In this document: piece by piece, positions 1 through 59,145 of the stretch
Numbering within the stretch: position 1 is the first letter of the stretch
How the letters are laid out: each line of letters begins with the position of its first letter
From: an uncultured Candidatus Berkelbacteria bacterium
GTDB lineage: Bacteria; Patescibacteriota; UBA1384; UBA12157; JAENIV01
Assembly (NCBI GenBank): GCA_963698075.1
Contig: OY969116.1
Span: 19,881-83,880 of the forward strand
Direction: 5' to 3'
DNA: 64,000 nt
Position numbers and translations under genes: made by a program
Notes under the pieces: model-generated
What the model was told of the DNA's origin: nothing
The model's database searches: none
What the model saw: only the letters and a program-made list of their open reading frames with translations

Positions 1-1508
1 ATGCTTCAGACATGTTTCCCTTAGCCACCAATAAACAATACTATCAAGTTCTCGCCATACCTAGCAATATCAAAAATCCGGCTGACGTTGCTGGAAGATT
101 AGCGCCTATTTTAGAAATTTCTGAGGATGAGATTTTTTCTAAGATTAATAATGATAAAAATTACGTCCCGCCCTTAAAACATGGTCTTAGCGAAGAAGAA
201 GGTGATAAAATTGCTAATCTCAAACTTCGAGGCATTGTTGTTTTGCCAGAATCATCTCGTTTCTATCCGGAAGGAGAATTGGCCTCTCAGATTTTGGGAT
301 TTGTTAACGATGCTGGTAATGGCCAATATGGTGTTGAAGGTTATTTTAATGATGAGTTAAAGGGTTCGGGAGGTCAAATTACGGCCGAAAAAGATGTTCT
401 TGGGCGTCTTTTTAACATTGGCGCCCGCACCCAACCAGAGAATGGCACCGATTTTATTTTAACTTTGGATCATAATATTCAGTATCAGGCAGAACAAGTT
501 TTAGAAGAGGCAATTAAAAAATATAAAGCCGATTCCGGCTCAATCGTAATAATTGACCCCCAAACTGGCGCTGTTTTAGCCATGGCTGGCGACCCAACTT
601 TTGACCCGAATAAATTTAATGAAGTGTCCCAAGACAATCAAGATGTTTTCAATAATCAGAGTATCGCTAAACCATGGGAGCCGGGTTCAGTTTTTAAACC
701 GCTAATTATGGCCGCGGCCATTAATGAGGGTAAAGTCCAACCTGAGACTGAAGGCGTTTTTTCCAATGTGGTGACCGTAGATAGCTACGAGATTCATACT
801 TCAACCGATCAAGCTTATGGACGGGAAACAATGACCCAGGTTTTGGAAAATTCTGATAATGTTGCCATGGTTTGGGTTTCGGAACAGTTAGGCAAAGATC
901 TGGAGTATAAGTATCTTAAAGATTATGGGTTTGGCCGTAAATCAGGCATCGAAATGGATACGGAAAGCCCCGGCGAAGTTTTAGATTTAAAGCAGTGGTC
1001 TAATACTCAAAGAGCCACGATTGCTTTTGGTCAGGGTATTGCCGTTACCCCCGTCCAGCTCGTCACGGCTATGGCCTCAATCGCCAATGGGGGGAAATTG
1101 ATGAAACCCTATATTGTTTCGGAAGTCACCAGCAGCGATGGTCAAAAAGATGTCCGCCAGCCTCAAGAGGTGAAACGCGTCTTAAATACTGACGTTGCCA
1201 ATAAAGTGAAAGATATGATGGTTTCCGTGGTGGTCAATGGCCACGGCAAAAAAGCCGCCGTCCCTGGCTACAAAGTCGCCGGCAAAACTGGTACGGCTCA
1301 AGTCCCCGCGCCAGGTGGTGGATATTATAAAGACCGTCATATCGGTTCATTTGTCGGTTTCGCCCCGGCCGATGATCCGAAATTTGTGATGTTAGTCCGT
1401 TTAGATCAACCAAAAAATGTTGATTGGGCCGAAAGTTCCGCCGCCCCAACTTTCGGCGAGCTGGCCAAGTGGCTGTTGGATTATTTTCGCGTGCCGCCCA
1501 CGGGATAG
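1..1508 (+). CDS. ftsI: penicillin-binding protein 2 / FtsI-type transpeptidase (5' end cut by window edge)
   Basis: Reading frame is open to base 1. PBP dimerisation region is followed by transpeptidase motifs SVFKP (SxxK), SDN (SxN) and KTGT. It leads a dcw-type cluster. Confidence 0.85.
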   Translation, partial: ASDMFPLATNKQYYQVLAIPSNIKNPADVAGRLAPILEISEDEIFSKINNDKNYVPPLKHGLSEEEGDKIANLKLRGIVVLPESSRFYPEGELASQILGFVNDAGNGQYGVEGYFNDELKGSGGQITAEKDVLGRLFNIGARTQPENGTDFILTLDHNIQYQAEQVLEEAIKKYKADSGSIVIIDPQTGAVLAMAGDPTFDPNKFNEVSQDNQDVFNNQSIAKPWEPGSVFKPLIMAAAINEGKVQPETEGVFSNVVTVDSYEIHTSTDQAYGRETMTQVLENSDNVAMVWVSEQLGKDLEYKYLKDYGFGRKSGIEMDTESPGEVLDLKQWSNTQRATIAFGQGIAVTPVQLVTAMASIANGGKLMKPYIVSEVTSSDGQKDVRQPQEVKRVLNTDVANKVKDMMVSVVVNGHGKKAAVPGYKVAGKTGTAQVPAPGGGYYKDRHIGSFVGFAPADDPKFVMLVRLDQPKNVDWAESSAAPTFGELAKWLLDYFRVPPTG

Positions 1509-1580
1509 TTCTTTACAAAGAATGCTAAAAAGAATGCCCAGCAGAGAGATCTACTGGGCAGGTCAGGAATAATGGGCCGA

Positions 1581-2342
1581 TTAGGTGCCGGGTGGTTGGA
1601 TGAAGTACGGCTCGGGGCGGTAGGGAACTGGCGGAAACCGGAGCGATCTTTTGGCTTCGGCTATCCTCGCCTGGCGTTCATCGAGGAACCGTCCCTTATA
1701 GAATCGGCAGTCGAGCAAGGCCGCGAAGGCCCAGTGGCCGTATTCTCGTGCCAGGTAGTGACTGTAAGGTAATCCCAGGCATCCGCGGCCAGATCCGGAA
1801 GACCATTTGACGAAAGGAACCTCTGGGATGCAATATTTGAAATACACCCCGGCAGGTATCAGATGTGGCCAGTTAGAAACGGGAACGATGAGGTCGTAAT
1901 GAAGGAGGAATTGTCGCGAGATTCTGATATCCTCGGCCGTGTGAGAGCTGACCTGCTGGCCGATGACAATCGCGCTTTCGATATTGCGGCGGCCTCGATC
2001 CCTGGCGAAAGTGACGACCTGCTTTTCCATGTAGTGGGCTGATGTGAGTCCATCACAGTCTGCTGTGCCGCCAGAGCAGTAGATATAGGATTCACTACCA
2101 AGACTCGCCAGCGAAAAGGCATCGATCGTTCCATGAATCCGTTCATCTGCTTCCGGAAGATATTCGCCTGGCATCTGGCCTTGTAAAGGATAGACCACGA
2201 CGCGAAGGGGACGATCTATTCCTTTCTGTCGTAAACGATGTAGTCCTGCGGACAACGCTCGTCTAAGCCGTTCCTCGTTCACCGAAGGTGCACCCCCGTG
2301 GGATGGTATTAGCCGACTTGAAATTAACAATTTCCTCGACAA
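1581..2342 (-). CDS. hypothetical protein (253 aa) encoded in a high-GC segment
   Basis: Long ORF on the minus strand inside a ~970-bp segment whose G+C is clearly higher than its surroundings. It converges on the ftsI 3' end. No motif I can name confidently; a weak resemblance to hydrolase/amidotransferase-like folds is not firm. Confidence 0.4.
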   Translation of the reverse strand: MSRKLLISSRLIPSHGGAPSVNEERLRRALSAGLHRLRQKGIDRPLRVVVYPLQGQMPGEYLPEADERIHGTIDAFSLASLGSESYIYCSGGTADCDGLTSAHYMEKQVVTFARDRGRRNIESAIVIGQQVSSHTAEDIRISRQFLLHYDLIVPVSNWPHLIPAGVYFKYCIPEVPFVKWSSGSGRGCLGLPYSHYLAREYGHWAFAALLDCRFYKGRFLDERQARIAEAKRSLRFPPVPYRPEPYFIQPPGT

Positions 2343-2478
2343 AAGTCAAGCCCCAGCACCAGAACAAAGTTCGGTGCGGGGCGCAGACCCCGCAGACGAC
2401 GCACAGCCATAACAGGACGCAGTCCGTTTGGCAGTAAGGAGTTGTGTGGGGTCAATAAATCTGATAGAATAAATCCTT

Positions 2479-3672
2479 ATGTCTAATTTTTTACAATCTT
2501 ATCTTCGTTTCTGGGCCAGCCGATATCTAAAGAAGGTCAAGCCCAAAATTATTGCCGTCACCGGTTCTGCTGGCAAAACCTCGACCAAAGAGGCAATTTT
2601 TGAAGTCTCGAAAGTTGCCTTTGGCGAGCAAGTGCGGCGGTCCGAAGGCAATTTGAATACCATCTATGGCATTCCTTTGGCAATTTTAGGTTTTAAAAAA
2701 CCGCCAGTGCCGTTGGACCGACCCTTTTCGCCCTGGCCCTGGATTCCCATAATTTTTATCGCTCCTTTTAAAGTATTTTCCAATTCGGCTACTAAATATC
2801 TGATCTTAGAAATTGCCGCCGATAAACCGGGAGATATCAAATTTACAACCAGCTACGTCAGGCCAGATGTTGTCGTCATCACCAATCTTGGCCCAGCCCA
2901 TTTAGAAATCTTTGGCACGATGAAAAAAATCATTGCCGAAAAAACCGAACTTTTAAAAGCTTTATCTTTGGATGGTTGGGCAGTTTTAAATTACGATGAT
3001 GAAAATCTTCGAAAGTTGAAGCTGGGAGATATTGTCAATATCAAAACCTATGCCATTGATGGAAAAGCGGAAATCAAAGCCCAAAATATTACAACGGAAA
3101 TAAAAGATTATCATCCAATCACCAATTTTCAAGTAATTTTCGATAACTTTAAGTTTCTTGCTCAAATTGCCACCCTTGGTCGAAAGCACAATGTTTATAC
3201 CGCTTTGGCAGCGATCGCTTGTGGGAATATTCTTAATATTGATAAAACAAAAATAATTGGAGGATTAAAAAATATTCATGGCCAAAAACATCGGATGGAA
3301 GTGTTAGAAGGAAAGAATGGCTCAATCATCCTCGATGATACTTACAATGCTAATCCTCTGAGTATGAAAGCGGCTTTGGAAACTTTAAAAATATTACCCG
3401 GGAGAAAAATTGCGGTTTTGGGAGATATGCTGGAATTGGGCGAAATTACTCAAAAAGCCCACCGAATTATTGGCGAATATGCCAAAGAAATCGTTGATGA
3501 AGTGCTAGCTGTGGGCGATTTGGCGATAAATTATCAGACCCAGAAATATTTTAAAAATAAAGAAGAGGTCATTAATTACCTTTTGAAGGAAACGAGAGTT
3601 GGTGATATGATATTAATAAAGGCTTCTCGCGGTATGGCTATGGAGAGTATTGTTGAGGCCTTGAAGCAATAA
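2479..3672 (+). CDS. murF: UDP-N-acetylmuramoyl-tripeptide--D-alanyl-D-alanine ligase
   Basis: Mur ligase P-loop GSAGKTSTKE and C-terminal DDTYNANP motif. It sits immediately upstream of mraY. Confidence 0.8.
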   Translation: MSNFLQSYLRFWASRYLKKVKPKIIAVTGSAGKTSTKEAIFEVSKVAFGEQVRRSEGNLNTIYGIPLAILGFKKPPVPLDRPFSPWPWIPIIFIAPFKVFSNSATKYLILEIAADKPGDIKFTTSYVRPDVVVITNLGPAHLEIFGTMKKIIAEKTELLKALSLDGWAVLNYDDENLRKLKLGDIVNIKTYAIDGKAEIKAQNITTEIKDYHPITNFQVIFDNFKFLAQIATLGRKHNVYTALAAIACGNILNIDKTKIIGGLKNIHGQKHRMEVLEGKNGSIILDDTYNANPLSMKAALETLKILPGRKIAVLGDMLELGEITQKAHRIIGEYAKEIVDEVLAVGDLAINYQTQKYFKNKEEVINYLLKETRVGDMILIKASRGMAMESIVEALKQ

Positions 3673-4696: not shown

Positions 4697-4942
4697 TTGC
4701 CTCGTAAGGCAAGGCATGACATTTTATTTTTAAAAGGAGATTTTATGGAAACCAAGCCATCAAAGATTGAACAAGAACCACAATTTAGTCCAGAGGCGAG
4801 AGGCCAGGAATGGATAGATTCTCATAAGCGGCAGCTAAATCAAACTTTAGCCAGCCAATTAGCGAAATTATGGGAAGGCGAAGATGTCAATTTTTTGCGC
4901 TTGGCTGTTACCCAAGTCACTGGTCAAAGAGTGGGGGAATAA
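4697..4942 (+). CDS. hypothetical small protein (81 aa)
   Basis: ORF packed directly after mraY (ATG adjacent to the mraY stop). No recognisable motif. Confidence 0.35.
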   Translation: MPRKARHDILFLKGDFMETKPSKIEQEPQFSPEARGQEWIDSHKRQLNQTLASQLAKLWEGEDVNFLRLAVTQVTGQRVGE

Positions 4943-5281
4943 ATGCCAGGGAAAGATTTTTCAACCAATTTGGAAATTATCAAAAAGTCCTTGGTTAAAA
5001 TCGGCTTTACCTTGGAAGAGGCAGAAAGTCAGCTTCAAGAGGTAGGGAAAATCGTTATTATGGCAATTTTCCAACGGCTCTTAAAAGAGCGGGCATCGGT
5101 TGAAGATTTGACGCCCCAAAATATTCAAAAATACCTTGAATCCAATTTTAACCCGACTTATCTTAAACAAGTGCTCGAATTCGAATCCAATAAAATTGTT
5201 GATGATTATCTTAAATCCGTCACCCAAGATTTGACTCCCGATATAAAACAGAACTTTTACCAAGATATTCAAGAAAATTAG
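4943..5281 (+). CDS. hypothetical acidic protein (112 aa)
   Basis: Start overlaps the previous stop as TAAATG, suggesting a co-translated pair. No recognisable motif. Confidence 0.35.
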   Translation: MPGKDFSTNLEIIKKSLVKIGFTLEEAESQLQEVGKIVIMAIFQRLLKERASVEDLTPQNIQKYLESNFNPTYLKQVLEFESNKIVDDYLKSVTQDLTPDIKQNFYQDIQEN

Positions 5282-5336: not shown

Positions 5337-6086
5337 ATGGAAGAGAAAATCTTCAAATTTTCGATATTGGCTAAATTTCCTGGAATTATTCATGGATTCT
5401 CCACCCGAAATTATGGTGACATGAGATTTGGTCATTTAGCCGATGAAGAGATTGTTAAAAATCGCCAGCATTTTTGCCAAAGTTTAAATATCAATTTGGA
5501 TGATATTGTCGTTGCGAGACTTATTCACGGATCAAAAATCACTACCGTTGCTAAAGAAGAAAAAGGTCGAGGCGCCCGGGATATGACCAGTGCCATTGCT
5601 CAGACTGACGGATTAATCACCAAAGAGAAGAAAATTTATCTTATGATAACTTTGGCCGATTGTATTCCTATCTTTGTTTTCGATCCCTTAAAGCAGATTG
5701 TCGGCATTGTCCATGCTGGTTGGCGAGGGGTTATCGCCCAAATTGTTGGAAGTTTGATCGCGAAATTAAAAAATTTAGGCTCAGAACCGGCAGATTTAAT
5801 CTTTGCTCTTGGGCCGGGAATTTGTCAGAAACACTTTATCGTCAAAGACGATGTTTTGGAAAAATTTAAGGAATATTATCCCTCGGCGACTTTTGTTCGT
5901 AATCACGATGGGTACATTGATTTAAGAAAAGCGATTTTGTTTGATTTAAAAAAAGAAGGGGTGGCTAAAAATAATATCGAGGTCGCTAGCGATTGCCCTG
6001 CCTGTTTAAATGGCAGATATGGCAGTTTCCGCAAAGAGGGGGCTGGCGTTCCGGCATCAGCAGCGATCATTGGGATGAGAGAATAA
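5337..6086 (+). CDS. pgeF: YfiH/PgeF-family peptidoglycan editing factor (DUF152, laccase-like)
   Basis: Family signature ITLADCIPIF and IVHAGWRG. dcw-linked position as for ylmD/pgeF in other bacteria. Confidence 0.75.
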   Translation: MEEKIFKFSILAKFPGIIHGFSTRNYGDMRFGHLADEEIVKNRQHFCQSLNINLDDIVVARLIHGSKITTVAKEEKGRGARDMTSAIAQTDGLITKEKKIYLMITLADCIPIFVFDPLKQIVGIVHAGWRGVIAQIVGSLIAKLKNLGSEPADLIFALGPGICQKHFIVKDDVLEKFKEYYPSATFVRNHDGYIDLRKAILFDLKKEGVAKNNIEVASDCPACLNGRYGSFRKEGAGVPASAAIIGMRE

Positions 6087-7441
6087 TGGAAAAATTAAAA
6101 AATCAAAAAGTTGGTGTTTTGGGTCTAGGCGATGAGAATATCGCCCTAGTTAAGTATCTGATAGAGCAAAATGCCAATGTTGTTGTATGTGATAAGCAGA
6201 GCAGGGAAGAGTTGGGCGAGTATTATCGTGAAGTGAAAAATCTGCCGGTGCAGTTCCGACTCGGGCCACACTATTTAGATCATCTAGACGATTTTAAGAC
6301 TGTTTTTCGCACGCCTGGTCTCCCCTACCTTGATAAAAAAATTCAAGAAGCTCAGAAAGCAGGAGTGGAAATTTCCTCACAAACAAAATTATTTTTTATG
6401 CTATGTCCCTGCCCTATTATAGGTATTACTGGGACTAAGGGTAAGGGTACCACAACAGCACTCATAGGCGAGATCCTAAAGTATGCTGGCAAAGATGTTT
6501 ATTTAGGTGGAAATATTGGTAAACCTCCAATATCATTCATAGATAAACTAAATAAAGATAATCTTGTTGTTTTAGAATTGTCCAGTTTTCAATTGCAAGA
6601 CTTGGAAAAATCACCCCATATTGCTGTCGTCTTGGATATAAAAATTGATCATTTAGATTATCATCAAGACGAAGCCGAATATATAGAAGCTAAATTAAAT
6701 ATCGTGCGTTTCCAAACTAAAGATGATTTTGCCGTCATCAATGCTGATTATTTGACCAGTATCGAGTTTGCCTCCTCGACAGCGGCTAAAATATGGTGGT
6801 TTTCACGGCGAAAAACAGTTGACATTGGCTCTTTTTTACTTCATGATAAGTTAATTTTAAGAACTGAAGATAAAGAAACCGAAATTATCGCTCTTAATCA
6901 AATCCAACTTCGAGGGGCTCATAATATAGAAAATATCGCTGCTGCTGCGACTGCCAGTTTTCTTGCCGGCGCTGACCTGGGAGCGATTAAAACAGCTGTC
7001 AAAGATTTTAAGGGTTTAGAACATCGCTTAGAATTTATCCGCGAAGCCCGTGGCGTCAAGTTTTACAATGATTCTTTTTCGACGACGCCCGAGACCACCA
7101 TTGCCGCCATTCAATCATTTAAAGAACCCATAATTCTCTTGTTGGGCGGTTCAGAGAAGGGCTCCGATTATCAGGAGCTTGGGAAAATTATCTCTCAAAG
7201 CAAGGTTAAAATGATTATCCCCATTGGTTTGACCGCCAGACGCATTGTCAAAGAAGTTGTCAACAATGATATTAAAATTATAGATGAAATTCAATCAATG
7301 ACTGAGGCGATCAAAATTGTTCAAGAGAACGCCCGGCCAGGCGAGGTCGTTTTACTTTCACCGGCTTCAGCTTCTTTTGATCGTTTTAAAAATTACAAAG
7401 AAAGAGGCAAAATTTTTAAAGCCGAAGTGAGTAAGCTATGA
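6086..7441 (+). CDS. murD: UDP-N-acetylmuramoylalanine--D-glutamate ligase
   Basis: Rossmann N-terminus VGVLGLG and Mur ligase P-loop GITGTKGKGTT. Start ATG overlaps the pgeF stop (TAATG). The ORF-track extension to 5993 is probably not translated. Confidence 0.85.
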   Translation: MEKLKNQKVGVLGLGDENIALVKYLIEQNANVVVCDKQSREELGEYYREVKNLPVQFRLGPHYLDHLDDFKTVFRTPGLPYLDKKIQEAQKAGVEISSQTKLFFMLCPCPIIGITGTKGKGTTTALIGEILKYAGKDVYLGGNIGKPPISFIDKLNKDNLVVLELSSFQLQDLEKSPHIAVVLDIKIDHLDYHQDEAEYIEAKLNIVRFQTKDDFAVINADYLTSIEFASSTAAKIWWFSRRKTVDIGSFLLHDKLILRTEDKETEIIALNQIQLRGAHNIENIAAAATASFLAGADLGAIKTAVKDFKGLEHRLEFIREARGVKFYNDSFSTTPETTIAAIQSFKEPIILLLGGSEKGSDYQELGKIISQSKVKMIIPIGLTARRIVKEVVNNDIKIIDEIQSMTEAIKIVQENARPGEVVLLSPASASFDRFKNYKERGKIFKAEVSKL

Positions 7442-8547: not shown

Positions 8548-9650
8548 TGCGTATCCTACTTACCGGTGGAGGAACTGCTGGGCATGCCTGGCCGATTATT
8601 CTCATCGCCCAAAGCCTCACCCGCAATAGACGAGCAAAAATTTTATATGTGGGCTCACGCCAGGGGATTGAGAAAGATTTAATTAAAAATCAATCCCGGA
8701 CTGATTTTTCCATACCTTTCCGGGGCATAATTGTTGGCAAATCCCGACCCTATTTTTCCTTCTCTAACTATTGGGACATTTTTAAAACTTTGATTGGGAT
8801 TATCCAGGCTTTTTTCATTATTATTTCATTTAAGCCCGATGTCATTTTTGCCAAGGGCGGTTACGTTACTTTTCCCATCATTTTTTGGTTAGGTTTTTTA
8901 AAAATTCCCTTAGTCATTCATGAATCAGATGTAATGATGGGTCGGGCCAATCTTTGGGCGGAAAAATTTGCCTCAAAAATCTGTCTGGGTTTTCCAATTG
9001 AGGAGTACAATGCTTTGCAAGAAAAATTACCCTTAGAAAAGTTAGTTTATACTGGAATTCCGGTAGCGCCAGACTTCTCCGAAACTCCGATTAAGACTGG
9101 TGGACATTTGAAACTTTTGATTACTGGCGGTTCCCAGGGTTCATCAAAAATCAATCAAATGATTGCCCAAATTCTGAGTGAACTTTTAAAAAAATATGAA
9201 ATCTGGCACATCGCCGGCAAACGAGATTATCTTGAACTTTTAAAATTAAAAGACAACAATTATCATCTGTATGATTTTACTCAACATTTGGCAAAATTTA
9301 TGCGTGATTCTGATTTAATAATTACCAGAGCGGGCGCTAGCACTTTAACTGAGATTGCCGCCGCTAGTAAGCCAGCAATTATCATACCGTTAGAAAGTGC
9401 CAAGGGTGAACATCAAGAGGCCAATGCCAAAATTTTCCAAGATAAAAATGCCGCGGTTGTTTTGAGTGAAAAAAACTTAACCTCTAGTTCGCTTCTTTCT
9501 ATTATTGATAACTTAATGTCAGATGAAGGGCTGCGTAAACTTCTGGGGCATCATGCCCATAGATTTTATCAACCACATGCCGTCGAAGAAATTATTGATG
9601 TTATCTTTGAATCCTCTCATGAATCGCATGCAAATTTTAAAACAATTTAA
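8547..9650 (+). CDS. murG: undecaprenyldiphospho-muramoylpentapeptide beta-N-acetylglucosaminyltransferase
   Basis: N-terminal MRILLTGGGTAGHAWP G-loop typical of MurG (GT28). ATG overlaps the ftsW stop (TAATG). Confidence 0.85.
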   Translation: MRILLTGGGTAGHAWPIILIAQSLTRNRRAKILYVGSRQGIEKDLIKNQSRTDFSIPFRGIIVGKSRPYFSFSNYWDIFKTLIGIIQAFFIIISFKPDVIFAKGGYVTFPIIFWLGFLKIPLVIHESDVMMGRANLWAEKFASKICLGFPIEEYNALQEKLPLEKLVYTGIPVAPDFSETPIKTGGHLKLLITGGSQGSSKINQMIAQILSELLKKYEIWHIAGKRDYLELLKLKDNNYHLYDFTQHLAKFMRDSDLIITRAGASTLTEIAAASKPAIIIPLESAKGEHQEANAKIFQDKNAAVVLSEKNLTSSSLLSIIDNLMSDEGLRKLLGHHAHRFYQPHAVEEIIDVIFESSHESHANFKTI

Positions 9651-10887
9651 AGCAGTTAAATCATTTTTAAGTCGAGAGATTCTAGAACACACATGGTTTT
9701 TTTTGGCGATTTTAATTATCGGAAGTTTCCTACTGAGAATTTGGCATTTGGGAGTAATCAAAGAAGAAATCTTCGACGAAGTTTATTTTGTCCATTTTGC
9801 AAAAAATTATTTATCAGGGACTTCTTTTTTTGATATTCATCCGCCGCTAGGCAAACTGATTCTCGCTCTAGGTATTAAAATTTTTGGTGATACCCAATTT
9901 GGTTGGCGGATTATGCCAGCGATTTTTGGGACCGCCGTCATCTTTTTAGGATATCTAGTTGGCAAAGAATTAAAAAACCCGCCTGACGATCGGGCAGGCA
10001 AAATTGTCGGACTATTTATGGCATTAATTTTGGCTCTTGATGGAATGATTTTAGTTTATTCCCGAGTCGGTCTAATGGATATTTTTATGATCTTTTTTAT
10101 TTTTTTTGGATTCTGGAGCTTTCTCAAATTTGCTAAAACTAATAAATTACATTATTTAGCCCTCGCTGGTTTATCGCTGGGTATGGTAGCTTCCGTAAAA
10201 TATATTGCCGGTTTGTTATTTTTTGTATTTCTTTTAATAATTTTCGTCAAAAAAATACCGATTAAAAAAATAATTTGGCAATTTCCGATTTTTATTCTCG
10301 TTCTACCAACATTAATATATCTTGCTTTTTTCCTTTTTAACTTCCCGCTTGATGGCCATTTTTTCAGCAAAGTATTAGAATGGCACCAACAATCTCTAAA
10401 TTATAATTTAACGTTAAAAGAAGGTCATCCTTATGGTTCAAAATGGTGGACTTGGTTTTTGCTCTTGAGACCAATTTGGCTTTATTTTAAAGATATTGGT
10501 GGCCAATATGTGGGTGTTGTTGGCTTGGGTAATCCTCTGGCCTGGTGGTCTTCATTGATAGTAGTGCCGGTGCTTATTTGGAGAGTTTACAAAAAAGACA
10601 CGACCGCTACTATTATTTTAGGTAGTTTTCTAATATTTCTTTTGCCCTGGGCTTTTTTTAAGAGAGTGCTTTTTTATTATCACGCCTTGCCGGCATTTCT
10701 CTTTTTAAGTCTTGGCACAGCTTATCTTTTGGAAAAACTTCTCAAAGATAATTTAGGAAAAGTAATTGTTTCTGTTTATTTTATCTTGTTAATTTTTTTA
10801 TTCTTTTATTTTTTGCCAATTTGGATGGGCTGGTCAATTTCCTCTGCCCAATTTTATCATCGAATGTGGTTCAAGAGCTGGATTTAA
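9619..10887 (+). CDS. glycosyltransferase family 39 (PMT/ArnT-like) integral membrane protein
   Basis: Multi-TM protein with the GT39/PMT-type loop motif IKEEIFDEVYFVHFAKNYL...DIHPPLGK. Overlaps the murG 3' end by about 30 nt. Confidence 0.6.
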   Translation: MNRMQILKQFKAVKSFLSREILEHTWFFLAILIIGSFLLRIWHLGVIKEEIFDEVYFVHFAKNYLSGTSFFDIHPPLGKLILALGIKIFGDTQFGWRIMPAIFGTAVIFLGYLVGKELKNPPDDRAGKIVGLFMALILALDGMILVYSRVGLMDIFMIFFIFFGFWSFLKFAKTNKLHYLALAGLSLGMVASVKYIAGLLFFVFLLIIFVKKIPIKKIIWQFPIFILVLPTLIYLAFFLFNFPLDGHFFSKVLEWHQQSLNYNLTLKEGHPYGSKWWTWFLLLRPIWLYFKDIGGQYVGVVGLGNPLAWWSSLIVVPVLIWRVYKKDTTATIILGSFLIFLLPWAFFKRVLFYYHALPAFLFLSLGTAYLLEKLLKDNLGKVIVSVYFILLIFLFFYFLPIWMGWSISSAQFYHRMWFKSWI

Positions 10888-10926: not shown

Positions 10927-12348
10927 ATGTTAAGCGAAGCGAAATCCGCCTCTGGCGGAATCAAAAAAATCCATTTTATTGGTATCAAAGGCGTAGGCAT
11001 GTGCGCCTTAGCATTACTTGCTAAAGAGAAAGGAGACGAAGTTACGGGCTCCGACATTGATGAGACCTTTGTGACAGATGACGCTCTAGCCAAGGCAGGC
11101 ATCGAAGTCAATATTTTTGATAGCAATAATATCTCCAACAAGCTTGATCTCGTAATTGTCTCGGCCGCCTACGGCAAAGACAACATTGAAGTAAAAGAAG
11201 CCAAAAAAAGGCATCTTGAGATCATGTTTTATTCTGAAGCCTTAGCTTTTTTTGCTCGTAATTCGCTCTTAATTGCTGTTGCCGGGATTCATGGTAAAAC
11301 AACAACGGCAGCGATGCTTAGTTTTCTTTTAACCAAAGCCAATCTTGATCCGAGTTTTGTCATTGGTGCTGGTGAGGTTAAGTCCTTAGGAACAAGCGGT
11401 CATGTCGGTAAGGGTGATTATTTTGTTGTCGAAGCCGATGAATATCGTAAGAGTCCAGACGACTCTTCATCTAAATTTTTTGATCTTTCACCGGAAATAG
11501 AAATAATCACGAGTATCGAGATGGATCATCCTGATATTTTTACTTCCGAAGAATCGGTCTTTAACGTCTTTTATAAATTTGCCTGTCGTATTCCCCGTAA
11601 AGGTTTTATCATTCTTTGCACCGATTATCCAAAAGCAAAAAAGCTCCAGCGCTCTTTGGCCGATCGCAATATTGAATCTTATGGTTTTTCAGAAGCACTC
11701 TGGCAAATTATCGATTTTCATGAAACTCGAACGGAAACAATTTTTTCAATTAAACATCAGGAAAAAATCATTGGTCCATTTAAATTAAAAGTGCCTGGTC
11801 AGGCTAACATCTTAAACGCTACCGCGGCAATTATTACTTGTCTAAAAATTGGGATAGAAGAAAAATTAATTAAAAAAAACATTGCTGATTTGGTGGGTGT
11901 TAAAAGACGTTTTGAAAAAATTGGCCAGTTCAACGACATTACCATTATCGATGATTATGCTCATCACCCTCGCTCAATTGATTTGACTTTAGAGGCCGCC
12001 AGAAAAAAATTTCCCACCCACAAAATTTGGTGTGTTTTTCAGCCTCACACCTATTCCCGAACTAAAGAACTCTTAAAGGATTTTGCCACCGCTTTCAAAG
12101 AAGCTGACAAAGTCATCGTCACTGAAATCTATGCTTCCCAAAGGGAAAGTGAAGCCACCATCAGTGGGCAACAACTAGCAGAGGCAATCCATCGGCACCA
12201 GCGTAACGTGAGATTTATTAGCGACTGGTCAAAAATTATCAAAGAAATTATTGATTCCGCCGATGGTCAAAATTTAATTATTACCATGGGTGCGGGTGAC
12301 ATTTACAAATTAGGCAATACATTACTCAAGGCATTAAAAGAGACGTAA
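10927..12348 (+). CDS. murC: UDP-N-acetylmuramate--L-alanine ligase
   Basis: N-terminus IHFIGIKGVGMCALA and P-loop AGIHGKTTTAAM. Confidence 0.85.
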   Translation: MLSEAKSASGGIKKIHFIGIKGVGMCALALLAKEKGDEVTGSDIDETFVTDDALAKAGIEVNIFDSNNISNKLDLVIVSAAYGKDNIEVKEAKKRHLEIMFYSEALAFFARNSLLIAVAGIHGKTTTAAMLSFLLTKANLDPSFVIGAGEVKSLGTSGHVGKGDYFVVEADEYRKSPDDSSSKFFDLSPEIEIITSIEMDHPDIFTSEESVFNVFYKFACRIPRKGFIILCTDYPKAKKLQRSLADRNIESYGFSEALWQIIDFHETRTETIFSIKHQEKIIGPFKLKVPGQANILNATAAIITCLKIGIEEKLIKKNIADLVGVKRRFEKIGQFNDITIIDDYAHHPRSIDLTLEAARKKFPTHKIWCVFQPHTYSRTKELLKDFATAFKEADKVIVTEIYASQRESEATISGQQLAEAIHRHQRNVRFISDWSKIIKEIIDSADGQNLIITMGAGDIYKLGNTLLKALKET

Positions 12349-14116: not shown

Positions 14117-15760
14117 ATGGTTAAAAGATGGTTAGTTTTACCTAAAAAATCGCAAGATTTAGTTGAACAACTTCTCATAAACCGCAGAATCAAAAAGGAG
14201 GACTGGACCTCCTTTTTAAGACCCGATTTTGAAAAAGGACTTCACGACCCCTTTTTAATGAAGGGCATGAAAGAAGTGGTTCAGCGTATCGAGGAAGCGA
14301 TCAAAAATAAAGAAAAAATTGGTCTCTTTGGTGATTATGATGCTGATGGCATTCCGGGAATCGTTTTGCTTTACGAGACTTTAAAACTTTTTGGGCTTGA
14401 TGTCGAAATTTTCATTCCCACCCGTGAGCAGGGCTATGGTTTAAATAATAAAGGGATTGATATTTTAAAAAAAGAGGGATCTTCTTTAATGATTACCGTT
14501 GATTTGGGGGTGAGAAATATTGAGGAGATCAATTATGCTTGCCAAAATCAGATTGAGACTATTATCATTGACCATCACGAGGTCGGTAAAAATTTGCCGA
14601 AATGCCTCATTCTTGATCCCAAACAAAGAGGCGATAAATATCCATTCAAAGATCTCTCTGCCACTGGCGTCGTTTTCAAGCTCTTGCAGGGATTGTCTAA
14701 AAAATCATCAAAAATTAATATCGCCTTTTTAAAATGGTCTTTGGATTTGGTGGCAATTTCTACCATTTGCGATATCGTGCCGCTCGTTGATGAAAATCGA
14801 ATCTTTGCCAAATGGGGCCTCATTGTTTTGCAAAAAACCAAGCGCCTTGGTTTGCGGGAATTATATCAAAGGGTTGCAATATTACCTGAAAAGATCGATA
14901 CTTATTCGGTTGGCTTCCAAATCGGACCGCGGCTCAATGCGCCGGGAAGAATGGACCACGCTAATGAAAGTTTTTATTTATTGACGACTAAAAATCACGA
15001 GCAAGCGGGTGTATTAGCCGAAAAATTGGATAAAATTAACCGCTGCCGCCAAGCGGAATTGGACCGAGTTTTAAATGAGGCCCGAAAAAAAGTTTGCCGC
15101 GATGGTCTTAATAAAAAGAAAGTTATTTTGGTCGATGGTAAAAATTGGCCGCATGGAATAATCGGTCTCGTAGCGGGTAAATTAATGGAAGAATTTGCCC
15201 GGCCGGTAATTGTCTGTGAGCGCCGCGAAAAAGATTTGCGAGGGTCGGCGCGTTCAATTGACGCTTACAATATTATCGAAGCTCTCGATTTTTCCAAAGA
15301 ATATTTGCTTCGATATGGCGGTCACAAACGAGCGGCGGGATTGACTTTGGAATTAGAACATCTTTCTAATCTTTATGACAAATTATTGGAAATCGCCGAA
15401 TCAAAACTCAAAGAAGAAGATTTAGTGCCAAAAATTACTATCGATGCGAAGCTCAATATTGAAGACATCAAAATGGATTTATTAAAAAATATTCAAAAAT
15501 TTGAGCCATTTGGTCTCGGTAACCCTCGTCCGGTGTTTATGATGGAGCAGGCGGAAATATCGGAGGTGAGGACCGTAGGTAAAGAGGGAAAACATCTTAA
15601 AATGCGGGTGGGCGAAATAGATACGATTGGATTTGATTTGGGCGTGTGGGCGGGCAAATTAGACCTTAATAAAAAAATAGATTTAGTTTTTACGATCGAC
15701 GAGGATACTTGGGATGGACGGTCAAAAATCCAACTCAAAATTTTAGATCTCAAAATTTGA
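14117..15760 (+). CDS. recJ: single-stranded-DNA-specific exonuclease RecJ
   Basis: DHH phosphoesterase motifs GDYDADGI and IIDHHE, followed by a DHHA1 region. Confidence 0.85.
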   Translation: MVKRWLVLPKKSQDLVEQLLINRRIKKEDWTSFLRPDFEKGLHDPFLMKGMKEVVQRIEEAIKNKEKIGLFGDYDADGIPGIVLLYETLKLFGLDVEIFIPTREQGYGLNNKGIDILKKEGSSLMITVDLGVRNIEEINYACQNQIETIIIDHHEVGKNLPKCLILDPKQRGDKYPFKDLSATGVVFKLLQGLSKKSSKINIAFLKWSLDLVAISTICDIVPLVDENRIFAKWGLIVLQKTKRLGLRELYQRVAILPEKIDTYSVGFQIGPRLNAPGRMDHANESFYLLTTKNHEQAGVLAEKLDKINRCRQAELDRVLNEARKKVCRDGLNKKKVILVDGKNWPHGIIGLVAGKLMEEFARPVIVCERREKDLRGSARSIDAYNIIEALDFSKEYLLRYGGHKRAAGLTLELEHLSNLYDKLLEIAESKLKEEDLVPKITIDAKLNIEDIKMDLLKNIQKFEPFGLGNPRPVFMMEQAEISEVRTVGKEGKHLKMRVGEIDTIGFDLGVWAGKLDLNKKIDLVFTIDEDTWDGRSKIQLKILDLKI

Positions 15761-15773
15761 ACTAATAAACGAA

Positions 15774-15799
15774 AGGACGAAACGGATCCGTTTCGTCCT
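15774..15799. terminator. perfect 26-nt palindrome (AGGACGAAACGGATCCGTTTCGTCCT) between convergent genes
   Basis: Fully self-complementary sequence read directly. It lies between the recJ stop and the stop of the minus-strand pseudopilin gene. Flanking U-runs are weak. Confidence 0.5.
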
Positions 15800-15842
15800 T
15801 GTGGGATGACTAGGAACTATGGTTGTGTGAGCAGGCCGGTCG

Positions 15843-16283
15843 CTACCACTCGCTGTATTTCGTATGTCCATCCATGGCGGTGAGACTGGAGGCGCTCTGG
15901 ACCTTGCCGGTCTTGGGGGTATAAACCCAGTCGGCATTCTGAGTAAAAGGGTCTATCGGCAGATCGCTGTCGGCGGTGTGCAGATACGGGCCTTTGAAGA
16001 CACCGATCGCATAGTCAACTCCGTTTGGACCTGGTGGCTTGGCGAGTTCTCCTTTTCCCTTTTCGGTCGTCATCAGGTCATCGAGCGTGCGTGGATAGTC
16101 GCCAAGATCCGCCTCGAACTGCTGGATGGCATCGCGGAGCTGGTGCAGATTGCCCCGAAGCGTTGCCTCATTGGCCTTACGATGGATATACAGCAGCCAC
16201 GTGAAGAGGAGCGCTGCCAGTATGCCCAATATGGCGATGTAGATCAAGATCTCGATCAGAGTGAAACCGAAACGCCGTTTCAT
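15843..16283 (-). CDS. GspG/PulG-like type II secretion pseudopilin (prepilin N-terminal methylation domain)
   Basis: MKRRFG|FTLIEILIYIAILGILAA class-III signal peptide. C-terminal GspG-like DPF..W...G...SL...DG motif region. Distinctly GC-rich. Starts at the internal ATG with a GGAG RBS. Confidence 0.75.
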   Translation of the reverse strand: MKRRFGFTLIEILIYIAILGILAALLFTWLLYIHRKANEATLRGNLHQLRDAIQQFEADLGDYPRTLDDLMTTEKGKGELAKPPGPNGVDYAIGVFKGPYLHTADSDLPIDPFTQNADWVYTPKTGKVQSASSLTAMDGHTKYSEW

Positions 16284-16420
16284 GCTCCCACTCCTATCGT
16301 TGGGCATCACTTTCTGCCCTGTCCAGGGATGACCTGGTATTAAATTATAGATAAAATTTTAGAATAAGTCAACAGAATTAAAAAACTTACTGTATAAATA
16401 AAGTCACAATAAACATTCCA

Positions 16421-37937: not shown

Positions 37938-38333
37938 ATGAAACGACGAGGTTTCACTTTAATCGAGTTATTGGTGGTCATCGCGATCATCGGCATCTTG
38001 GCTGCCATGATTTTAGTGGCGCTATCGAGTGCGCGCCAGAAGGCAAGAGTTGCTGCAGGCAAAGGTACTTTATCCGGTATTCCAGCGGCTCTTGCTATCT
38101 GTGCTGATTCGAACAACGGTGCAGGTGCAGCTGTAAACACGCCCGGGACTGACCCCATATGTTCACCTGAGACTACGGATTGGCCGGCTCTTCCTGCTGG
38201 CTGGTCGTGGGGGGCAGCAGGCGGTACACTTCTAGATCCGACTGTTGCAGGTGCTTGTGATGTTTCTAATTGTGGTGGAGCTGGAGTTACAGCTAGTTGC
38301 TCACAGACAGGCTGTACTTTTGTAGGACCTTAA
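37938..38333 (+). CDS. type IV pilin with Cys-rich, GC-richer C-terminal domain
   Basis: MKRRG|[18 protein letters not shown] class-III signal. C-terminal half has 8 Cys and many Gly/Ala. G+C is noticeably above local background. Confidence 0.8.
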
Positions 38334-51236: not shown

Positions 51237-51239
51237 TAC

Positions 51240-51278
51240 GAAGAAAGCCCCGCTTGCGCAGGGCCTTCTTCTTTTTAT
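51240..51278 (+). terminator. rho-independent terminator after tsaC
   Basis: GAAGAAAGCCCCGC-TTGCG-CAGGGCCTTCTTC stem-loop followed by TTTTTAT. Confidence 0.6.
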
Positions 51279-51844
51279 CCTCTCCTTTACAATCCCAACC
51301 GCCACGTTAGATAATTTTCATATCTAACGGGGCATCTAGCCAGTCTCATAATAATTTTTAATGTACAAGACTGGGATTGGGTGTAAGAGGAAAGAAATTA
51401 CCTTGAACGGCAACTTTCTTTACCCTTACCGGGATTTAAAGAATATAACATGAAATCCGCAAATTGTCAAGAGATGCATCAGCCCCCGGTGAAAACACGG
51501 GGGCTGTTAGTGATGTTTCATATACCAGAGGCGTGGAAGAGGCTTGGGCAGTTGGCGGAGCCTGCCTTGTTGATAGAGCGTTCCGGCGAACTGATTGAGT
51601 TGACGTTGGCCGCCCCGACCGAGAAACCTGCGTAGCCGGGGGACCTTGATGTCTTGTAGATGTTGTTGGTTCATGTCCCAGCCGAGCTTGCGGGCACAAG
51701 ATACAACGTTGTCTTCAAGCTCCGGTCGCCGCTGGCAAGATAATCGCATCAGACTCGCCTCCAGGTCGTATTTACTTATGAAAAATTATAGCATAAATTT
51801 CATTCTTTGTCAATTCTTTGATAAATTAAGATTGGGTATAAATT

Positions 51845-57565: not shown

Positions 57566-58381
57566 ATGCGACGTACCGTCACAATCTTTCTAGCCCTGGT
57601 GCTCACATTCGTGAGTATCGGGCTAGCGTCTGCGGAGAAGTTCAAGCAGACGTCGACCCCTAAGCTGGGACACTATGCCAAGGTCTTCGATCCGGCGACC
57701 GGCCTTCCGCTGATAGTGGAAGGGCCTGATGGTCAGCCGATCGAATGCTCGGCAGACCAAGTCCCCATCGGTGCGACAGTTCGCGTCTACTGGCTGACTA
57801 ACGCCAATGGACGACACACCGTCAAGCTCACCGCCCGCGAAAAGGACGGGAGCGTTGAGCAGGACATTGTTGGCGGGCCGTACTACGTCGACTACCTCAC
57901 TAAGACGGACTACATTGGCCCCCACGTCTGTACTGCCAGCATCTGGACTGACGAAGAGCGGTGGGACCCGGCCGTCGAGGAATACACTGTCATCTCCAAA
58001 ACCCTCGAGCAGGCTCGGTTCAAGCCGCGCGTCATCACTGCCCCGCCCGGGACTCCAATCCCGCCGGGCGCCACGCCGATCAGTCCGCAGGTGGTTCCGG
58101 TGCCAGACGCTGATCCGCCAGCCATACCGACACCCGCGGCACCCCCTGTTGATCCTCTGATGGGTCTGAAGCTGGCAAGCAGGGAACAGATCCTGACTTG
58201 TACCTATGATCGGGTCAACCGAGTTCAACTTGGAGACCAGATCGTGGTAAAGGTTCGCGGACAGGTCGTCGGGTTGCTCGAGGTCACTCGTCTCGACCGG
58301 TTCGGCTACAATGCCATCCTGGTCGCAGGCGAGGCCCCTGTCGGGGCGGAACTGTACCTCAGGAATGGAGGCCAAGCGTGA
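57566..58381 (+). CDS. secreted hypothetical protein with Pro-rich linker (high-GC island gene 1)
   Basis: Signal peptide MRRTVTIFLALVLTFVSIGLASA, a beta-rich domain, a PPGTPIPPGATPISPQVVPVPDADPPAIPTPAAPP linker and a C-terminal domain. G+C is far above the backbone. The stop overlaps the next start (GTGA). Confidence 0.6.
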   Translation: MRRTVTIFLALVLTFVSIGLASAEKFKQTSTPKLGHYAKVFDPATGLPLIVEGPDGQPIECSADQVPIGATVRVYWLTNANGRHTVKLTAREKDGSVEQDIVGGPYYVDYLTKTDYIGPHVCTASIWTDEERWDPAVEEYTVISKTLEQARFKPRVITAPPGTPIPPGATPISPQVVPVPDADPPAIPTPAAPPVDPLMGLKLASREQILTCTYDRVNRVQLGDQIVVKVRGQVVGLLEVTRLDRFGYNAILVAGEAPVGAELYLRNGGQA

Positions 58382-59145
58382 AGCGTTTCACATCGGTTCT
58401 GATCGCTATCGCTGTTCTGATGCTCGCTGCAACCACCCTCGTGGTGGCGCAGGAAGAGGAGCTGGTCGGCCATGTCCCGGAGCTCCAGCAGTACGTCGAG
58501 GTTTCAGTGTACCACGACACGACCGGTCGCACCGAGGCCGATCTGGCGCAGCGTGAGAAGCATTTCATCTCGACAGTACCTCAGGCCGGTGGTCTTCGAG
58601 GTGCTGTGCGGGAGATGGTGCTCGCGGGTGTCGTCCATGTGCCCGAGACCGGATGTGGGAACTACGTTCCTGGCCAGTCCGTCCACTACTGGTCGATGTA
58701 CCAGGCCTGGACGGGGCCGCATAAGGCACGGGTTCCAACGGTCGCTGGTCCGCAAGGTCCACAAGGACCCGAAGGACCACAGGGAGTTCCGGGTCCACAA
58801 GGGCCGCCAGGACCGCAAGGACCGTCGGGACAGTGCTATGTCCAGTACATCGAGACCCCGCGCGTCGTCTTCGCCCCGGACACGCGGGCGATCTGGGTCC
58901 CGCAGGGGAACCCGCCAATGTTGTACCAGGCTCCCGAGTGGTGGCAATATCTCCTCGGGCCAGCCACAGCCTATCTGGGGCGGGGCAGAACCAACATCTC
59001 CTTTACCCAGAGCCAAGTAGCACAGGGTGGCCGCGGCGGCAAGAATGTCAACGTAAATGACAATGACAACACCGCGGTCGGCACGGGTGGCGACGCCACG
59101 GCCAATGCTGGTGCCGCGGCTGGAGCGCAGTCTCAGTCGCAATGA
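58378..59145 (+). CDS. secreted protein with collagen-like (Gly-X-Y)10 repeat (high-GC island gene 2)
   Basis: GTG start and signal peptide [53 protein letters not shown] repeat. The C-terminal [23 protein letters not shown] motif is homologous to the N-terminal region of the next gene. Confidence 0.6.
58747..58833 (+). repeat. collagen-like Gly-X-Y triplet repeat coding region
   Basis: Ten consecutive GXY triplets, mostly GPQ, read from the translation. Confidence 0.8.

Follow-up and report, generated by a model that had tools for sequence, protein, structure and literature searches.

What occupies the gap between ftsI and murF, where the proteobacterial gene order would place murE, in an uncultured Candidatus Berkelbacteria bacterium? 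We analysed a window of 64,000 nucleotides (nt) of its DNA (GenBank assembly GCA_963698075.1, contig OY969116.1, positions 19,881 to 83,880 of the forward strand; coordinates below are those of the window). The interval at 1509-2478, between the ftsI stop (12-1508, plus strand) and the murF start (2479-3672, plus strand) of the division and cell wall (dcw) cluster, holds a gene rich in guanine and cytosine (GC), here called gene X. An earlier note on this DNA had read the segment as a foreign-looking insert, with a protein of no recognisable family, at the place of murE. In this study, we found that X is a divergent DUF218 gene, restricted to one clade and long established in a conserved dcw slot; its alleles are horizontally exchanged and stay GC-rich.

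A minus-strand gene between ftsI and murF

The high GC of the segment was confirmed. In 300-nt windows, GC was 0.52-0.563 across 1201-2400, against 0.410 for the whole window. The open reading frame (ORF) of X has a GC of about 0.54-0.55; the mean of the 59 long ORFs of the window is 0.416 (standard deviation (sd) 0.058). In the comparison of codon usage with the backbone that the earlier note had proposed, GC at third codon positions (GC3) was 0.56 in X against a mean of 0.394 (sd 0.078). Both values of X lie more than 2 sd above the means. The features of the segment and its flanks are as follows.

12-1508, plus strand: ftsI, 3' 498 codons (the window begins within the gene); Pfam Transpeptidase (4.1e-80) and PBP_dimer
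1560-1535, minus strand: intrinsic terminator of gene X, an 11-bp stem and then TTCTTTTT (terminator scan)
1581-2282, minus strand: gene X, 233 amino acids (aa), GTG start; homologues, codon-phase indels, ratio of nonsynonymous to synonymous substitution rates (dN/dS), fold and DUF218 match
2287-2297, minus strand: ribosome-binding-type box GGGGGTGCACC, GGGGGTG core 8 nt upstream of the GTG
2349-2321, minus strand: gene X promoter, -35 TTGACT (2349-2344), 17-nt spacer, -10 TAATTT (2326-2321)
2350-2458, plus strand: three-helix repeat element, ~105 nt, GC 0.60, outside gene X; copies and covariation
2479-3672, plus strand: murF, 397 aa; TIGR01143 murF 275.5 bits vs 76 bits for murE; Pfam Mur_ligase_M and Mur_ligase_C

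The segment is an independent transcription unit, in which a 233-aa ORF has its own promoter, ribosome-binding box and terminator; it is on the minus strand, as had been reported for its ORF. The 253-aa ORF described before (1581-2342, minus strand) is present and begins at TTG 2342. This TTG is not the start because it falls within the X promoter; the conserved start is GTG 2282, and the true product has 233 aa. The terminator sits in the 72-nt gap that separates the convergent stop codons of ftsI and X. Most aligned relatives also have a GCCCAGC...GCTGGGC hairpin at this position, with a stem that is longer or altered, and the hairpin of locus L001 differs. The GGGGGTG core (GGGGGTG(C/T)AC) is kept in most clade loci; it is GGAGG in L093/L094 and degenerate in L095.

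In the promoter, a 12-nt box TTGACTTTTGTC (2349-2338) is near-invariant and is followed by a TAnnTT hexamer in relatives. In all main-clade X loci with upstream sequence, irrespective of allelic type, the box occurs with at most one mismatch some 60-75 nt ahead of the X start; the L012/L007 type, which is divergent, is without it. Only 7 other near-matches were found in 1.05 Mb. A generic promoter scan did not call the X promoter because its -10 box matches at only 3 of 6 positions. X is protein-coding: indels in the alignment are whole codons, and blocks of residues are invariant. Within a type it is under ordinary purifying selection, with a dN/dS of about 0.15, the same as for murF.

As claimed in the earlier note, no murE exists in the 64-kb window. 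The Mur ligases present are murF (2479-3672), murD (about 6086-7441) and murC (10927-12348) only, and tblastn with E. coli MurE gave weak cross-matches to these three; profile scans agreed. The same search, of the segment as well as of the entire window, found no remnant of murE (best E value 0.29 over 11 residues in 1509-2478, either strand). X itself has no Mur-ligase domain in Pfam and TIGRFAM scans and does not belong to the MurE family (TIGR01085).

Loci of relatives (L numbers) were recovered by a MurF-based scan of genome contigs. A metagenome scan used a 10-sequence X alignment, and an X scan of genome contigs with back-translated patterns recovered no locus, as the patterns missed relatives. 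X lies antisense between ftsI and murF in L001, L002, L004/5, L006, L009/10/15, L012 and L092-L096, and likewise in L003. The same-slot arrangement occurs in about 10 distinct genomes, and every X family member with retrievable flanks fits it. Locus L007 carries a 30%-identical X relative plus a canonical DUF218 gene, both after ftsI. L013, an equally close relative, has an ftsI-murF gap of 46 nt and no X. These results show that X is a long-standing resident of the exact ftsI-murF slot in one Patescibacteria clade and not a recent insertion. Inspection of the same junction in relatives, to which the earlier note had tied the fate of its reading, thus turned up X homologues at the same position and strand with similarly high GC in related low-GC genomes, and the idea of a recent foreign insert failed.

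The statement that murE normally sits here did not hold either. In 67 of 80 GTDB Patescibacteria loci, murF follows ftsI on the same strand; 52 of these gaps measure at most 100 nt and 11 measure 101-400 nt. Of the four gaps that are larger, two contain X, one an 846-aa secreted protein and one an HD-like protein, and none contains a Mur ligase. No MurE-like sequence was found in 96 loci by tblastn with E. coli MurE, whereas E. coli MurF matched 91. Throughout the sampled phylum, the ftsI-murF junction is therefore without murE, and no gene was displaced by X. For annotation, this means that the proteobacterial ftsI-murE-murF order should not be assumed for Patescibacteria, and that a GC-rich, apparently family-less ORF of the candidate phyla radiation can be an old resident.

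Family, fold and putative active site of gene X

The homologues of X form 7 clusters. A profile search of 1.84 billion proteins returned 26 representatives (E ≤ 1e-3), and a second homologue search with a profile gave two further proteins only. A Pfam scan of the single sequence was empty, and to that extent the earlier statement on the family was right. At the level of the family, DUF218 was identified: 15 of the 25 members match PF02698 (best E 2.6e-10), and hhalign of the X family profile against a canonical DUF218 protein (L007 895-1428) gave a probability of 97.6% (E 3.7e-12). The AlphaFold2 model of X has a predicted local distance difference test score (pLDDT) of 94.0 and a predicted template modelling score of 0.90, and its predicted core is Rossmann-like alpha/beta, as in the DUF218-type fold. 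The best fold match among the viral structures of BFVD was also a DUF218 protein (E 4.6e-5).

A putative catalytic triad of X consists of T115 (SxHTAE; in longer form IGExxSxHTA), H140 (SNWPHL) and E180 (AREY). These residues are in register with T125 (FRTLD), H149 (RFHCE) and E182 (IREF) of E. coli SanA, with spacings of 25/40 vs 24/33. The mapping rests on motif register because hhalign to SanA alone was not significant. T115 and H140 are at least 90% conserved in the 25-member alignment, and the Glu is present in most members by reading of the blocks.

No transmembrane segment was found in X (maximum 19-residue Kyte-Doolittle mean 0.89 vs 2.93 for SanA), and its N-terminus is a charged helix. 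The N-terminal transmembrane anchor of the SanA/ElyC subgroup is thus missing, and X should be cytoplasmic like YdcF because it has no hydrophobic anchor. The C-terminus ends in a proline-rich tail, [RE][FYW]PP[VI]xP/Y (1581-1650, minus strand), which follows a lower-confidence linker and is conserved across types that are 31-50% identical. This tail may be a docking motif. From its sequence, the X product is predicted to be a soluble, anchor-less member of a small divergent DUF218 (SanA/ElyC/YdcF) subfamily with the triad retained. The view of a protein without a family did not survive the profile and structure searches.

Exchange of X types and the high GC of the gene

X occurs as at least five deeply divergent types, with 63-79% identity within and 31-50% between types. 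Four pairs of loci were compared in FtsI and X.

Window and L094: FtsI identity 88.8%, X identity 36.7%
L006 and L092: FtsI identity 85.0%, X identity 45.6%
L002 and L092: FtsI identity 77.1%, X identity 78.5%
Window and L006: FtsI identity 75.3%, X identity 68.6%

In 100 neighbour-joining bootstraps, the X tree grouped {window, L001, L004, L006} and {L002, L092} with support of 100 each. The FtsI tree grouped {window, L094} (90), {window, L094, L001} (98) and {L006, L092} (100), and each tree gave 0/100 for the splits of the other. Sliding nucleotide identity between L092 and L006 was 66-83% in the flanks and 44-61% in X. Between L092 and L002, X (71-91%) was more conserved than the flanks. 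Synonymous divergence (dS) of same-type pairs was also lower in X than in ftsI (0.64 vs 2.2 for L092-L002; 0.78 vs saturated for window-L004). X members down to 31% identity (P0016) adjoin FtsI C-termini almost identical to that of the window. These results show that the content of the slot is exchangeable, as the distribution of the X types contradicts the tree of the flanking ftsI. Of the earlier wording 'foreign-looking', this much remains true: versions of X have moved horizontally within the clade.

The crossovers lie at the ftsI 3' end or terminator on one side and at the conserved promoter and 5' untranslated region (5'UTR) boxes on the other. In L006, a crossover is placed at the GGGGGTG box because the 5'UTR is L092-like upstream to this box and window-like from the box onward. 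The flanks are mosaic as well. ftsI of the window and L094 (12-1508 vs L094 2401-4110) is 88.8% identical with a dS of 0.94; murF (2479-3672 vs L094 178-1590) is 56% identical with a dS of about 2.2. Since the flanks are mosaic too, as seen in this murF and in the cargo of L011, the ftsI-murF junction is a recombination hotspot. Cassette exchange of X types is, in our estimate, highly probable. The exchange appears to take place through homologous recombination, at conserved boxes and flanks, with a gene pool endemic to the clade. To our knowledge, it is uncommon for deeply divergent alleles to be exchanged within the dcw cluster, which is otherwise conservative.

The conflict between the trees could also come from hidden paralogy, if an ancestor had tandem DUF218 paralogues of which the lineages kept different ones. 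L007 indeed has two tandem DUF218-type genes after ftsI, and the X types diverged anciently, with dS saturated between them. However, all clade loci have a single copy of X. Genomes with 85-89% identical FtsI carry different types, which would require several paralogues to have persisted until very recently. The lower dS in X than in the flank of same-type pairs and the visible recombinant in the L006 5'UTR also argue against it. Hidden paralogy is thus a possible but weaker explanation than exchange, and we regard it as unlikely.

The high GC is a property of X throughout the clade. In every clade genome X has a GC of 0.48-0.61 and a GC3 of 0.45-0.705, with flanks at a GC of 0.39-0.46; the excess is small in L012, and the distant L007 member is not enriched (0.345). 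All three codon positions are shifted. In the window, GC3 of ftsI increases toward X, from 0.25 to 0.50-0.52 within the final 180 codons of the gene. It also rises toward X in L009, L006 and L001, and is flat (0.22-0.32) in the X-less L013. Polarised third-position changes in X, summed over six lineages, were 53 from G or C to A or T and 32 in reverse (p about 0.02 by a rough normal approximation), and those in ftsI ran in the opposite direction.

As the polarised changes run from GC to AT and the family is endemic to the clade, the evidence fits a circulation of GC-rich X alleles among members of the clade, with a loss of GC once an allele has arrived. The high GC would then be the history of exchanged alleles, imported from GC-richer relatives and slowly ameliorating. 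Alternatively, GC-biased recombination (gene conversion) at the hotspot could be its source. Recombination tracts would bring GC into the ftsI end. No outside donor is visible because every X member examined with flanks sits in the slot of the clade, and a donor outside the clade is probably not the source. Of our whole account, the explanation of the high GC is the least secure.

Selection on nucleic-acid properties, such as rare GC-ending codons that keep expression low, or a stable antisense duplex or structure upon read-through of the dcw transcript, might instead hold the GC high. The enrichment in every type, down to 31% identity, would agree with this, as would a plus-strand fold better than shuffles (z = -3.07, 20 shuffles). 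On the plus strand the hairpin after ftsI has no T-run, and read-through into antisense X is therefore plausible. However, the shift in all three codon positions goes beyond the third, and the enrichment extends into ftsI synonymous sites. The mainly GC-to-AT changes of X suggest decay and not maintenance, and the distant low-GC L007 member works without enrichment. We give such selection only a small chance.

Possible role of gene X and neighbouring elements

DUF218 proteins of E. coli have been tied to envelope biogenesis. Deletion of sanA suppresses ftsI23 and raises the incorporation of nascent peptidoglycan, and each of T125, H149 and E182 is required, as the T125A, H149A and E182A proteins are inactive (PMC12176290). 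SanA phenotypes depend on lipid II availability, and ftsI mutations suppress them (PMC13251401). This genetics of 2025-2026 thus ties SanA to ftsI, lipid II supply and septal peptidoglycan (PMC12176290, PMC13251401). SanA is conserved mostly in Enterobacterales (PMC12176290). ElyC balances carrier-linked pathways, setting enterobacterial common antigen against peptidoglycan synthesis through the common lipid carrier.

X shares with SanA the DUF218 family, the triad by register, and a tie to ftsI, which is genetic in E. coli and a matter of gene linkage for X. Unlike X, SanA has an N-terminal membrane anchor; in addition, direct similarity between the two is not significant, and sanA lies outside the dcw cluster in E. 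coli K-12. We know of no divergent-allele swapping for sanA. E. coli YdcF is a cytoplasmic DUF218 protein with reported binding of S-adenosylmethionine and an alpha/beta nucleotide-utilising fold. It resembles X as a soluble, anchor-less DUF218 protein of about 200-270 aa, with a Rossmann-like alpha/beta core predicted for X; X differs in its extra N- and C-terminal helices and proline-rich tail. From ElyC, which has the same domain family, the model of flux control of carrier-linked envelope precursors is borrowed for X. ElyC differs in being membrane-anchored, periplasmic and tied to enterobacterial common antigen, which, as far as we know, is not expected in Patescibacteria.

By analogy with SanA/ElyC, and because of the strict linkage to ftsI and murF, X may act on an envelope precursor; we put the chances of this at about even. 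The substrate of such an enzyme would be a peptidoglycan precursor, linked to a nucleotide or a lipid, at the cytoplasmic face or inner leaflet, and the enzyme would tune the supply of precursor to septal synthesis. The conserved catalytic residues in divergent types suggest diversifying selection on surface or specificity, and the types may reflect diversifying or frequency-dependent selection on the precursor step. Patescibacteria are a distant phylum with reduced genomes, and the position of X next to ftsI and murF there gives independent genomic support for a link of DUF218 with FtsI and lipid II. The putative triad of X is intact and an anchor is absent, which suggests that the substrate is cytoplasmic and makes the small soluble product convenient for biochemical work. 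The exchange of types within the dcw cluster likewise suggests diversifying selection on a step of wall synthesis in Patescibacteria, and this core operon shows an unexpected variable cassette and an undescribed structured element.

Several points weigh against this account. The window X protein alone had no Pfam match at E ≤ 0.1, hhalign against E. coli SanA alone gave a probability of 1.3%, and Foldseek against the PDB returned no match at E ≤ 0.001, the YdcF structure included. SanA acts in the periplasm, and X has no anchor. We know of no biochemical activity for any DUF218 protein, and a role in precursor flux is therefore pure analogy. Species relationships were judged from flanking genes that are themselves mosaic (FtsI 88.8% and MurF 56% between the window and L094), and the counts of GC direction are small and taken by parsimony at near-saturated sites. 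On balance, we still consider the reading as a whole, a resident divergent DUF218 gene with exchanged types and a precursor-related role, to be the probable one.

A more far-reaching form of this reading would make the slot a balanced-polymorphism locus, in which each X type edits a peptidoglycan precursor differently and the adjacent RNA co-regulates. The edited precursor could be, for example, the UDP-N-acetylmuramic acid (UDP-MurNAc)-peptide handed to MurF, or a lipid-linked intermediate. A swap of X would then alter wall chemistry, and hence the susceptibility of these episymbiotic bacteria to host, phage or antibiotic. Joint regulation of the slot and the dcw operon would fall to the ~105-nt RNA, which is also present at the mraZ promoter. 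We consider this joint form improbable.

X could instead be a conflict gene (immunity, antitoxin or anti-phage) for which the junction is merely a hotspot of integration, and which plays no part in wall synthesis. The cassette-like replacement, the deep types and the unrelated cargo at or beside the same junction in L011, L048 and L057 are in keeping with this. However, six X members gave no PADLOC or PHROGs match, and a defence or phage origin of X was rejected. X also has no partner gene and is monocistronic between two essential genes. Its active-site residues are conserved across types, and the studied DUF218 members act on envelope biogenesis. We consider a conflict gene very unlikely.

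Still less can be said for a recent foreign island that displaced murE from its canonical place. The segment resembles a classical genomic island in its deviant GC and GC3, its opposite strand and the horizontal movement of X; no murE is found in 64 kb, and other accessory-looking GC-rich genes are present in the window. Of the marks of a recent island, however, only composition was seen; all clade members examined have X at the site, and no mobility feature was found. There is no integrase or transposase near the segment, no flanking direct repeat or att-like repeat, and the nearest tRNA is at 28.6 kb. X holds the same slot clade-wide, in about 10 related genomes down to 31% identity, and ftsI-murF adjacency without murE is the rule in the 80 Patescibacteria loci. 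The profile search of 1.84e9 proteins also gave only the 26 members. Such an island is hardly tenable.

A structured non-coding RNA or untranslated dcw spacer with a spurious minus-strand ORF can practically be dismissed: RNA genes of AT-rich genomes typically have a high GC, the plus strand folds better than shuffles and 2350-2458 is truly structured, but Rfam gave nothing at E ≤ 10, the protein is conserved with codon-phase indels and a dN/dS of about 0.15, the fold is confident (pLDDT 94) with a DUF218 match, and active-site residues persist between types whose DNA is essentially unalignable. At the gathering threshold, Rfam found 5 tRNAs only in the window, and nothing at E ≤ 10 in 1300-2700. 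The RNA-gene candidate was rejected with Rfam empty and the fold z-scores unremarkable (-3.07 and -1.5, 20 shuffles).

The structured element at 2350-2458 lies outside gene X. It directly adjoins the -35 box of X, and 20 nt separate its end from the murF ATG. Copies were found at L009 9819-9927 (minus strand), L009 14756-14860 (plus), L001 14680-14762 (plus) and L001 15978-16087 (plus). In L009 the element is also at the same place, on the X promoter side. In L001 and L009 it lies just upstream of the mraZ promoter, by GTGG MraZ-type repeats, and a further L001 copy adjoins another TTGACA promoter. In every instance the element borders a -35 TTGAC(A/T) box of the opposite strand.

Among six hits, one of them weak, 92.6% of cells were paired vs 72.5% in shuffles; the alignment was fitted to the model, which somewhat inflates the figures. 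Double changes occur in 27 of 37 pairs, and slid controls were 30-45% paired. The 13 G.U vs 1 A.C pairs and the RNAalifold energy (-33.4 vs -25.9) favour the plus strand of the window. An unpaired loop CAGUAAGGAGUU is nearly invariant. No Rfam match was found at E ≤ 10 in 1300-2700 or at E ≤ 0.1 around the L001 copies, and 79 other Patescibacteria loci held no full-scoring copy (best E 0.013). The strong covariation with strand-specific G.U pairs suggests an RNA, and the element is a candidate small RNA, leader or promoter-associated repeat.

Repetitive extragenic palindromic sequences, bacterial interspersed mosaic elements and Correia-type elements (REP/BIME, Correia-type) are promoter-associated intergenic repeats and serve as the comparison class. 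Like them, the element is short, GC-rich, hairpin-forming and intergenic, occurs in at least two copies per genome, and abuts -35 TTGAC(A/T). It differs in being found so far only around the dcw cluster, in its covariation with strand-specific G.U pairs and in its invariant unpaired CAGUAAGGAGUU. In L001, a 1.2-kb gene-less stretch of GC 0.555 (14763-15977) lies directly downstream of the TTGACA promoter that comes after an element copy. The stretch matches no Rfam family, is without a homologue in the window, and may be a large non-coding RNA.

Three other high-GC patches had been listed for the window, and the two at 15.8-16.3 and 57.3-59.2 kb are indeed GC-rich genes; the patch at 51.3-51.8 kb is only modestly enriched (0.46). 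This last patch (51237-51844) is 608 nt without a convincing ORF, with no Rfam match at E < 0.04. A GC hairpin there, CAGCCCCCG...CGGGGGCTG, adjoins TTGTCAAG, the same hairpin-plus-TTGACA layout as at 2350-2458. The patch and the L001 stretch showed no homology to each other or to the element. At 15843-16310 (minus strand, like gene X) lies a type IV pilin-like gene of GC 0.55, and a second one is at 37938-38333 (plus strand); the N_methyl motif and T2SSG annotation was given for the two jointly. The adjacent ORFs at 57566-58381 and 58378-59145 (plus strand) have a GC of 0.61 and 0.63 and a GC3 of about 0.69. By eye, their N-termini are hydrophobic and signal-peptide-like, and the second has collagen-type GPQ repeats. 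The region 57566-59145 is the most foreign-looking patch of the window.

Other content was also observed at or beside the ftsI-murF junction. L011 1414-5910 holds an IS30-like transposase and large unknown proteins where ftsI should be, L048 3218-5758 the 846-aa secreted protein, and L057 5304-5963 the HD-like protein of 219 aa. A second variable dcw slot lies between mraY and the Cu-oxidase_4 (PgeF-type) gene. It contains two small family-less ORFs in the window (4697-5281), a GC-rich (0.566) prephenate dehydratase in L002 (6587-7444) and an IS200-type Y1 transposase in L009 (6624-7298). Finally, a membrane glycosyltransferase of the PMT family (protein O-mannosyltransferase-like) is located between murG and murC (9523-10887, plus strand), and this gene is kept at the same position in L001, L002, L003 and L009.

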